A stretch of 64,000 bases of DNA from a virus: IMG/VR virus record IMGVR_UViG_3300035698_022074, positions 1-64,000 of that record. One strand, given 5' to 3'. The position numbers were made by a program, and so were the translations under genes. Positions 30,901 to 31,268 of the stretch are shown piece by piece. How positions within the stretch are numbered: position 1 is the stretch's first letter; every line of letters begins with the position of its first letter. The notes under the pieces are model-generated. The model had not been told where the DNA came from and searched no databases. It worked only from the letters and a program-made list of their open reading frames with translations.

Positions 30901-31268
30901 GGGGGCGCACCGGTTTCGACAGGGTGATAGTCTAATTGATAGTGCAAGCAGTCTAATGAGTAAATGACTTTAATCTTTGCTTAAAACGTTAGTTGCAAAC
31001 AACAACTCACACTTCCAGACAGCACTAGCTGCTTAATGGCGGGGTTTCTTAAGACCTTGTTTTTCAACTTAAGATAACAGGTAGCAATCCTGCGAAAACA
31101 AAAAACTAAATGGAGTCCCTACGGGTGGTCAAGCTTACTTCATTAGCTTGAGGGTTAGAATGATGACAGATCTTGTAAACTGACTGTTCAAAAATGTTTA
31201 CTAAGCTTGTGAATGACTAGATATTAGTGTTGCTTTGGACGTGGGTTCAATTCCCACCGCCTCCACCA
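30901..31268 (+). ncRNA. ssrA: tmRNA (SsrA), tag reading frame GCA…TAA encoding ANNNSHFQTALAA
   Basis: 5' GGGGGCGCACCGGTTTCGACAGGG and 3' GGACGTGGGTTCAATTCCCACCGCCTCCACCA form the tRNA-Ala-like domain with a G3-U70 pair. The resume codon GCA at 30995 follows gttagtt. The tag ends ALAA then TAA at 31034. About 368 nt, typical length. Confidence 0.8.

Follow-up and report, generated by a model that had tools for sequence, protein, structure and literature searches.

Genes for transfer-messenger RNA (tmRNA; ssrA) have been recorded in phages of the mycobacteriophage Bxz1 group and in phage G (PMC4131195, PMC12484599), and are present in 402 of 18,146 isolate phage genomes, or about 2% (PMC9004378). 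Huge phages have been found to carry a tmRNA together with release factors and SmpB (PMC7162821). One-piece tmRNAs are reported to be rare among marine isolates, and the roles proposed for marine-phage tmRNAs are to keep the hijacked translation machinery working or to degrade host proteins (PMC9004378). In Streptomyces phages, tmRNAs are routinely annotated (with the tag ANSKFAFALAA, for example). To our knowledge, phage-encoded tmRNAs have been listed in genome papers, and their function has never been shown. The 64,000 nucleotides of viral DNA analyzed here (positions 1 to 64,000 of the IMG/VR record IMGVR_UViG_3300035698_022074, referred to below as the window) contain a gene that, judging from its sequence and those of its relatives, very probably specifies a functional one-piece tmRNA carried by a phage.

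ARAGORN called a tmRNA at exactly positions 30901-31268 of the + strand, with the tag ANNNSHFQTALAA* at gene positions 95-136. The same interval matched Rfam family RF00023 over the entire model (1-374 of 374), with 119.8 bits (E 3e-46) against a gathering score of 47. A tmRNA with these ends, a G3-U70 pair, a GCA resume codon at 30995 and this tag had been proposed in the original prediction, together with RF00023 and ARAGORN as checks; all of these features are present at those positions, and both methods match the gene at full length. The termini can be read directly (5' GGGGGCGCACCGGTTTCGACAGGG; 3' GGACGTGGGTTCAATTCCCACCGCCTCCACCA). G3 (30903) faces U70 (31262) in the acceptor stem, forming the alanine identity pair, and the discriminator A and CCA end are encoded. 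The tRNA-like domain is closed by a T-loop of the GGGUUCRAnUCCC type (GUGGGUUCAAUUCCCAC). The tmRNA and both flanking hairpins were 100% identical across three independent metagenome assemblies from different samples; the source samples include SRR6185438 and JGI 3300028410 and 3300012271. A permuted, two-piece layout was not seen: ARAGORN reports a standard tmRNA, and RF00023 is the best Rfam family, with colinear ends. The window contains no second copy of the 26-nt tmRNA 3' end, even with three mismatches allowed, and no riboswitch or other additional Rfam element at the gathering threshold.

The gene is conserved at its genomic position in related phages. Homologues of the helicase encoded nearby numbered 1,843 at E≤1e-40 and lay on contigs as long as ~308 kb, the exact helicase being present on a contig of up to 179,559 bp. 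The gene order helicase, Hc1 (histone H1-like), tmRNA, small open reading frame (ORF), PIN-PhoH was kept in four of the related loci (L132, L135, L138 and L141), with helicase identities of 62-70%. The tmRNAs of these four loci are full-length RF00023 matches (98.8-121.3 bits), and their tags are ANNNYHYNAVALAA, ANNNSHFEVSALRAA, ANNNNHFIAAALAA and ANNNNFEMAMAA. The same neighbourhood was found on viral contigs from several samples. In a neighbour-joining tree of the helicase, which carries no bootstrap support, the tmRNA-bearing loci fall in one clade. A metagenome scan with the helicase recovered just the same contig and relatives at 48-51% identity, and a protein search with Hc1 for a donor lineage yielded seven metagenomic proteins. 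The tmRNAs of L132 and L138 (10280-10288 in each) end in …CCACUA, that is, ACUA rather than ACCA, so trimming and CCA addition would be needed in these two cases.

The internal architecture is likewise maintained among the five syntenic tmRNAs. PK1, the pseudoknot (PK) between helix 2 (H2) and the resume codon, has both of its stems, with differing sequences and by hand assignment, in all five. The resume codon is preceded by UAGUU here (UAGUU/GCA) and by UAAUU, UAACU, UAGUU and UAGUU in the homologues, the U-A being kept in every case. The frame in E. coli is set by the upstream UAGUC, whose A86 is essential and nearly universal (PMC2481249). All seven pairs of PK2 stem 1 show double-sided changes, and 94% of its cells are paired in an alignment of 46 sequences. 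The 3' region comprises one further knot and two hairpins, which may or may not correspond one-to-one to PK3 and PK4; its hand-assigned helices recur at equivalent positions, with different sequences, in the four homologues, the Rfam alignment being of low confidence there. PK1 and PK2 (both stems each) and the third knot can be drawn here and in the four homologues with differing base pairs. Pseudoknots that could not be folded had been named in the original prediction as evidence that would count against it; with hand-assigned helices, PK1, PK2 and the third knot all fold. The minimum free energy fold of the single sequence had a z-score of only -1.18, a value that we did not use as evidence, because so weak a signal is expected of a pseudoknotted RNA.

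We searched IMG/VR for further members with a degenerate pattern consisting of the frame-setting sequence followed by codons for A-N-N-N-x-H-[F/Y], which identified at least 119 loci. Exact patterns taken from either end of the gene or from its tag region gave no match in IMG/VR. An ARAGORN tmRNA with an ANNNxH[FY]… tag was present on at least 95 IMG/VR viral contigs (95 of 119 among the matches listed). Among these matches, 42 distinct tags were counted, or 46 together with the five syntenic genes; most have E or D at position 8 and end in RLAA or ALAA. Four of the five syntenic homologues, a set recovered by way of the helicase, agree in the motif and so provide independent evidence for it. 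The tmRNA-bearing IMG/VR loci share other genes with the window phage (among the matches listed, an NMNAT-like gene in 46, PhoH in 29 and Hc1 in eight). On the sequence data, the tmRNA is a member of a widespread viral family with its own conserved tag signature, not described before. Among the matches listed (L150-L268), 95 loci have a tmRNA, and in 46 of these it lies ~1.1 kb upstream, on the same strand, of a homologue to window ORF 17920-18804. In the window, this cytidylyltransferase-like and cupin (NMNAT-like) ORF is 13 kb from the tmRNA, so the linkage differs between subclades.

Selection on the fold was assessed in the alignment of 46 sequences, which contains one representative per tag, for the nested helices (acceptor, H2, H5, PK2 stem 1 and T-arm). 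Overall, 91.5% of cells were paired, as against 77.8% in column shuffles and 41-50% when the partners were slid by 1-3 columns. Double-sided (compensatory) changes were observed at 27 of the 41 base pairs tested, and the covariation score (0.413 vs. 0.162) was reached by none of 500 shuffles. G3·U was present in all 46 family members, and acceptor positions 4-7 covaried, with ~10 combinations. The peptide shows a corresponding pattern. Among independently found homologues, the resume alanine codon is GCA, GCC, GCU or GCG, and the asparagine codons are AAC or AAU. The three C-terminal positions, which were not constrained by the search pattern, are occupied by Leu in 83 of 91 unique family members (four codons), Ala in 90 and Ala in all 91, each of these alanines being encoded by all four codons. 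Such synonymous variation around a kept Leu-Ala-Ala indicates selection on the peptide itself and speaks against a pure SmpB decoy of the kind represented by the gene of mycobacteriophage DS6A, restricted to the tRNA-like domain. Taken together, the syntenic conservation, the viral family, the covariation and the kept Leu-Ala-Ala lead us to conclude that the gene is functional and phage-inherited.

The flanking elements (Table 1) suggest a compact expression unit. The distance from the Hc1 stop codon to the tmRNA 5' end is 0-35 nt in all five syntenic lineages, the two genes abutting in L138, and in each of the five a strong hairpin and T-run are found no more than ~12 nt past the tmRNA. The downstream terminator was overlooked by a simple terminator scanner. 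The hairpin upstream of the tmRNA is not conserved, the relatives having just 0-21 nt there, and is probably a 3' stabilizer of the released Hc1 mRNA rather than part of the tmRNA. The original prediction had reported a flanking hairpin and a terminator, and both proved far stronger than in shuffled sequence. A TATATA element occurs at a similar distance upstream of Hc1 in four of the five lineages. Hc1 and the tmRNA probably share one transcript. RNase P cleaves the tmRNA 5' end in bacteria, and we infer, as the simplest model, a single Hc1-tmRNA transcript cut by this enzyme at the tmRNA 5' end.

Table 1. Positions of the tmRNA, its parts and the surrounding features in the window (PK, pseudoknot; dG, folding free energy; z, z-score).
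Feature	Position	Strand	Evidence and details
One-piece tmRNA (ssrA), 368 nt, 3' CCA encoded	30901..31268	+	ARAGORN; Rfam RF00023, full-length
Acceptor stem, 5' strand GGGGGCG	30901..30907	+	Partner 31258-31264 CGCCUCC, 7/7 pairs, then ACCA
PK1	30950..30983	+	Stem 1 AGUC (gene 50-53)/GACU (66-69); stem 2 UGAGUAAA (57-64)/UUUGCUUA (76-83)
Frame-setting UAGUU, equivalent to E. coli U85-A86-G-U-C	30990..30994	+	Directly 5' of the resume codon
Tag reading frame GCA…GCU UAA, giving ANNNSHFQTALAA, then stop	30995..31036	+	ARAGORN; synonymous variation in the family
PK2	31047..31082	+	Stem 1 UCUUAAG/CUUAAGA; stem 2 ACCU/AGGU (stem 2 hand-assigned in 4 sequences)
3' pseudoknot region (PK3/PK4 equivalents)	31117..31201	+	CCC/GGG hairpin; knot UCAAGCU/AGCUUGA, loop UCAUU:AAUGA; last hairpin GUAAAC/GUUUAC
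T-arm GUGGG/UUCAAUU/CCCAC, tRNA-like domain	31241..31257	+	100% of cells paired in 46 sequences; 4/5 pairs with compensatory changes
Candidate sigma-70-like promoter TTAACT-N16-TGT-TATATA	30589..30618	+	~30 nt 5' of the Hc1 start codon
Hc1 (histone H1-like) ORF, 72 aa	30647..30865	+	Pfam PF07432, 3.7e-13; immediately upstream of the tmRNA
10-bp hairpin without T-run	30874..30897	+	3' of the Hc1 stop codon and 5' of the tmRNA; dG -17.3, z -6.8, matched by 0/200 shuffles
Intrinsic terminator, 14-bp stem (31276-31307) and T-run	31276..31312	+	dG -19.4, z -7.5; starts 8 nt past the tmRNA 3' end
~40 tRNA genes, most amino acids	444-15096, 24523-24692, 25904-25980	+	ARAGORN, Rfam
DUF444 (YeaH-like), SpoVR and PrkA kinase in a row	19904-24417	+	E 1e-113, 4e-121 and 6e-137
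Glycosyltransferases, nucleotide-sugar epimerases, UDP-glucose dehydrogenase, oxidoreductases	35787-50397	+	~15-kb island beside tail/baseplate genes

The carrier is a large, uncultured and probably aquatic phage. Nearly all ORFs of the window lie on the + strand with short gaps under code 11, and GC content is even throughout (39-47%, with 42% for the tmRNA). The window proteins include two baseplate-wedge-like proteins, PIN-PhoH, a DinG/Rad3-type helicase (phrog_2488), a PrkA/DUF444/SpoVR trio and many glycosyltransferases. Among named sequences, the helicase is closest to those of Tunturiibacter phage Tunturi_5 (309 kb), Bacillus phage G and an uncultured phage of 642 kb, all of them jumbo or huge phages. 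Neither an integrase nor SmpB was found among the window ORFs scanned (including with Pfam), and a tblastn search with an SmpB query (E up to 10) gave no match in the window and 26 related phage loci (344 kb). The same query detected SmpB in 37 of 120 bacterial ssrA loci. Given the absence of SmpB from the loci examined, function would rely on the SmpB of the host.

Boosted ribosome rescue and degron tagging through host SmpB, alanyl-tRNA synthetase and proteases is a role to which, from the sequence features, we would give an even chance. The tmRNA would be co-transcribed with the upstream Hc1 gene, the transcript ending at the strong terminator, and host RNase P would cut the tmRNA 5' end, also freeing the Hc1 mRNA. 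Host alanyl-tRNA synthetase would charge the molecule through G3·U70, and host SmpB and EF-Tu would then bring it to stalled ribosomes whose mRNA is broken or lacks a stop codon. Translation would resume at GCA, positioned by UAGUU, appending ANNNSHFQTALAA, and the …LAA end would route the tagged product to host ClpXP-type proteases. The likely benefit would be that ribosomes are kept free and amino acids recycled during infection, in a setting in which truncated messages would abound through the decay of host mRNA and host tmRNA may become scarcer. As a whole, a functional one-piece tmRNA of a large uncultured phage, with a role in rescue and tagging, is in our opinion the best explanation of the locus and a probable one.

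Several observations weigh against this explanation. The helices of the PK3/PK4 region and PK2 stem 2 were selected by hand among candidate stems. The search pattern specified tag positions 1-4, 6 and 7, so that conservation there is imposed in the IMG/VR members. The candidate promoter motif occurs once in the window, no more commonly than in shuffled sequences, and for this reason its support is weak. Phage SmpB is absent from the window and the related loci examined, the remainder of the phage genome lying outside the window, and no SmpB was found in the 119 IMG/VR loci (1.0 Mb); the SmpB of the host would have to recognize a tmRNA only ~65% identical to any bacterial one sampled. Finally, the syntenic site is without a tmRNA in sister lineages, of which L139/L140 and L142 also lack Hc1 and L146-L149 retain it.

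Absence of the tmRNA from the syntenic site in the close sisters L139/L140 and L142 implies that the gene is dispensable or mobile within genomes. Insertion of Hc1 and the tmRNA as a two-gene unit was rejected, as L146-L149 have Hc1 without the tmRNA. The contigs of relatives with 51% helicase identity (L003=L195 and L004=L218) have no tmRNA beside the helicase and carry an ANNNxH[FY]-family tmRNA elsewhere, from which it follows that the gene is old in a broad phage group and has moved within genomes, and that absence from the syntenic site does not equate to absence from the genome. The possibility of a single tmRNA gain on the helicase tree is weakened by these same relatives, which carry a family member elsewhere in the genome.

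The tag had been expected, in the original prediction, to point to the host lineage; this idea was not upheld. A scan of a genome collection with the tmRNA 3' end yielded 120 loci from many phyla, the 3' end pattern not being lineage-specific, and identity over the full length reached 67% at best. The 105 bacterial tmRNAs sharing the T-arm/acceptor 3' end are 64-67% identical to the gene, with the similarity confined to the tRNA-like domain, and ANNNxH[FY] is the signature of a viral family. The lone bacterial look-alike is an ssrA with the tag ANNNKHFALAA on a contig of a GC-rich Myxococcota metagenome-assembled genome (L028, JBDQIL010000690.1), which has no other similarity. The tag does not, therefore, identify the host. 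In L028, a tyrosine-integrase C-terminal motif lies right beside the ssrA 3' end, a classic island-integration layout. One helicase homologue is labelled Flavobacteriales in NCBI, and large aquatic “moraphages” carrying Hc1 have been predicted to infect Bacteroidota, with no mention of a tmRNA (PMC12619734). A DNA search with the tmRNA and the surrounding 24 kb gave no match in 50,697 GenBank phage records; no cultured relative was found, and no host is thus indicated. For family representatives, matches in GenBank phages were limited to att fragments and to the tRNA-like 3' end of other phage tmRNAs.

An RF1-like class-I release factor without domain 1 is encoded at 13209-13887 (+) (NCBIfam RF1 (prfA) 1.7e-54, RF2 6e-35 and PrfH 3.6e-20), with GGQ present and ‘PPN’ in place of the PxT of RF1. 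Its reading frame is completed only through a +1 shift at GGAGG-TCA-TTT-TAG-C; the layout is that of the autoregulatory frameshift of prfB, but at UAG, an RF1 codon, rather than UGA. An amber-suppressor-like tRNA with a CTA anticodon (ARAGORN ‘Pyl’; Rfam tRNA, 56.7 bits) is located 1.6 kb downstream, at 14939-15015 (+). Stop-codon recoding was considered as a context and rejected, since the gene map is compact under code 11 and ~16 ORFs have TAG as their stop. Two adjacent same-frame ORFs (108 and 242 aa; 50394-51449, +) are separated only by a TAG and may constitute one gene, with the CTA-anticodon tRNA allowing read-through.

The layout of L028 is a reminder that ssrA is a classic integration site, and a host chromosomal ssrA gene, or an att remnant at a prophage or island border, would be in keeping with two further results: most matches in an SmpB profile scan of IMG/VR lay no more than ~40 nt from contig ends, on prophage-derived contigs, and prophage-like phages in GenBank carry just 37-70 nt of the ssrA 3' end. 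The best 80 matches of the profile scan were host smpB genes at prophage borders, and are uninformative on this clade. The gene studied here is, by contrast, full-length, lies in the middle of a 64-kb phage-like region on one strand and recurs in the same gene order on several viral contigs from different samples; its GC content matches that of the phage, and no integrase, SmpB or duplicated 3' segment was found in the window. On the basis of the viral genes, the missing integrase, SmpB and duplication, the GC match and the repeated assembly, we reject the border explanation as extremely improbable. The view that this ssrA is phage-encoded, as originally predicted, is borne out by the viral neighbourhood, the lack of integrase, smpB or att duplication, and the conservation with covariation in related phages. 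Phages also pick up tRNA-like genes from their hosts, and the gene might be a recently captured passenger without a selected function, as its absence from the same site in some sister lineages would allow. Nevertheless, lineages at 62-70% helicase identity and at least 95 viral contigs have retained it, showing compensatory substitutions and identity elements that do not vary; in composition it matches the phage, and the bacterial tmRNAs sampled include no close donor, the 105 resembling it in the tRNA-like domain only. We consider a passenger very improbable.

A selected function need not be tagging. The tRNA-like domain could act as a decoy or inhibitor that soaks up host SmpB or blocks trans-translation or a tmRNA-dependent defence, the tag going untranslated to any purpose. 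The DS6A gene has little beyond the tRNA-like domain, and molecules of this type are strong inhibitors of tmRNA, perhaps because they titrate SmpB (PMC4131195); the loci examined, moreover, contain no phage SmpB. A pure decoy would, however, need none of the features of the mRNA part that are found here, namely the frame-setting U-A and resume codon, a frame that stays open for 11-15 codons and …LAA, conserved through synonymous changes, together with covarying PK1 and PK2, and we judge this role unlikely. The tmRNA could instead form part of a programme that rewires termination with the CUA tRNA and the frameshift-controlled RF1-like factor, for example by rescuing ribosomes that reach mRNA ends after read-through of UAG. 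The window encodes both partners, the CTA-anticodon tRNA and the factor that needs the +1 shift, and release factors, tmRNA and SmpB have been reported together in huge phages (PMC7162821). Against this are the 16-18 kb that separate the genes, the use of TAG as an ordinary stop by ~16 window ORFs and the compact gene map under code 11, which make such a programme improbable. A functional tmRNA acting in rescue and tagging remains our preferred interpretation.

A more far-reaching possibility, which we hold to be doubtful, is that tmRNAs with ANNNxH[FY][E/D]…(R/A)LAA tags constitute an old phage-specific lineage in which the tag motif serves as an adaptor or protease signal, or marks phage as against host products, in a form of programmable tagging possibly coordinated with the suppressor tRNA and the RF1-like factor. 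If so, the tag would have evolved under phage selection rather than as a copy of that of the host, and the tmRNA would do more than top up ribosome rescue. The family, with at least 95 contigs and 46 distinct tags, provides enough variation to separate structural from coding constraints. Its tag signature is directly searchable in metaproteomes and is a cheap marker for a clade of large aquatic phages; tagged peptides, if found, would directly show the use of trans-translation by a phage during infection. The simple unit of Hc1, tmRNA and terminator could be transferred to a model host.

Other genes of the window deserve mention. Midway through the tRNA array lies an 895-aa ORF (3979-6666, +) with matches to Major Vault Protein domains (MVP_shoulder 1.4e-26, Vault_3 2e-10), which is unusual for a phage. 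A TilS-like PP-loop ORF (ATP_bind_3, 2.5e-36) directly 5' of a CAT-anticodon tRNA (25243-25980, +) recurs in L138, L139 and L141; the sequences suggest a phage lysidine synthetase paired with its tRNA-Ile2 substrate. The DUF444/SpoVR/PrkA trio adjoins the helicase region in most related contigs. The small ORF just past the terminator (31346-31711, +) diverges strongly from that of the otherwise almost identical assemblies L006-L008 (121 vs. 114 aa); over the 1.4 kb compared with these contigs, there were 25 mismatches and 16 gap openings, with the tmRNA and helicase identical.

Set beside described tmRNAs, the gene most resembles the bacterial one-piece molecule (RF00023; E. coli tag AANDENYALAA), with which it shares the acceptor stem with G3·U70 and ACCA, the T-arm, a long H2, PK1 ahead of the resume codon, UAGU(U/C), a short tag with an ALAA end and, with stems largely assigned by hand, further pseudoknots. 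It differs in being phage-encoded, with no adjacent smpB and ~65% identity to the bacterial tmRNAs sampled, and in having a tag that starts with ANNNxHF and a 3' pseudoknot region that fits the Rfam model poorly. From this resemblance in sequence and architecture, it probably works as bacterial one-piece tmRNA does. The tmRNAs of the Bxz1 group, phage G, Streptomyces phages and huge phages are likewise full-length and carried by large, tRNA-rich genomes of lytic type, and the helicase of the present phage has a distant relative in Bacillus phage G (tag AKLNITNNELQVA). The tag family is nevertheless different, with similarity to the 50,697 GenBank phage records confined to the tRNA-like 3' end, and some huge phages encode SmpB, whereas none was found in the window. 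Melnitz and the pelagimyophages are also aquatic phages with an ssrA of their own, but their tmRNAs are two-piece and permuted and the present gene is a standard one-piece tmRNA. The gene of DS6A is a phage-borne ssrA derivative relying on host SmpB (PMC4131195), as this one presumably does, but it lacks the mRNA part, whereas here both the tag frame and the pseudoknots have been preserved intact. Phage tmRNA is already known as a kind, and the same roles have already been proposed for it (PMC7162821, PMC9004378); the locus leaves knowledge of the kind unchanged. What appears to be new is the recognition of an uncultured viral family that is large and united by its tag signature, the tight coupling to Hc1 within one subclade and the apparent lack of a phage SmpB.

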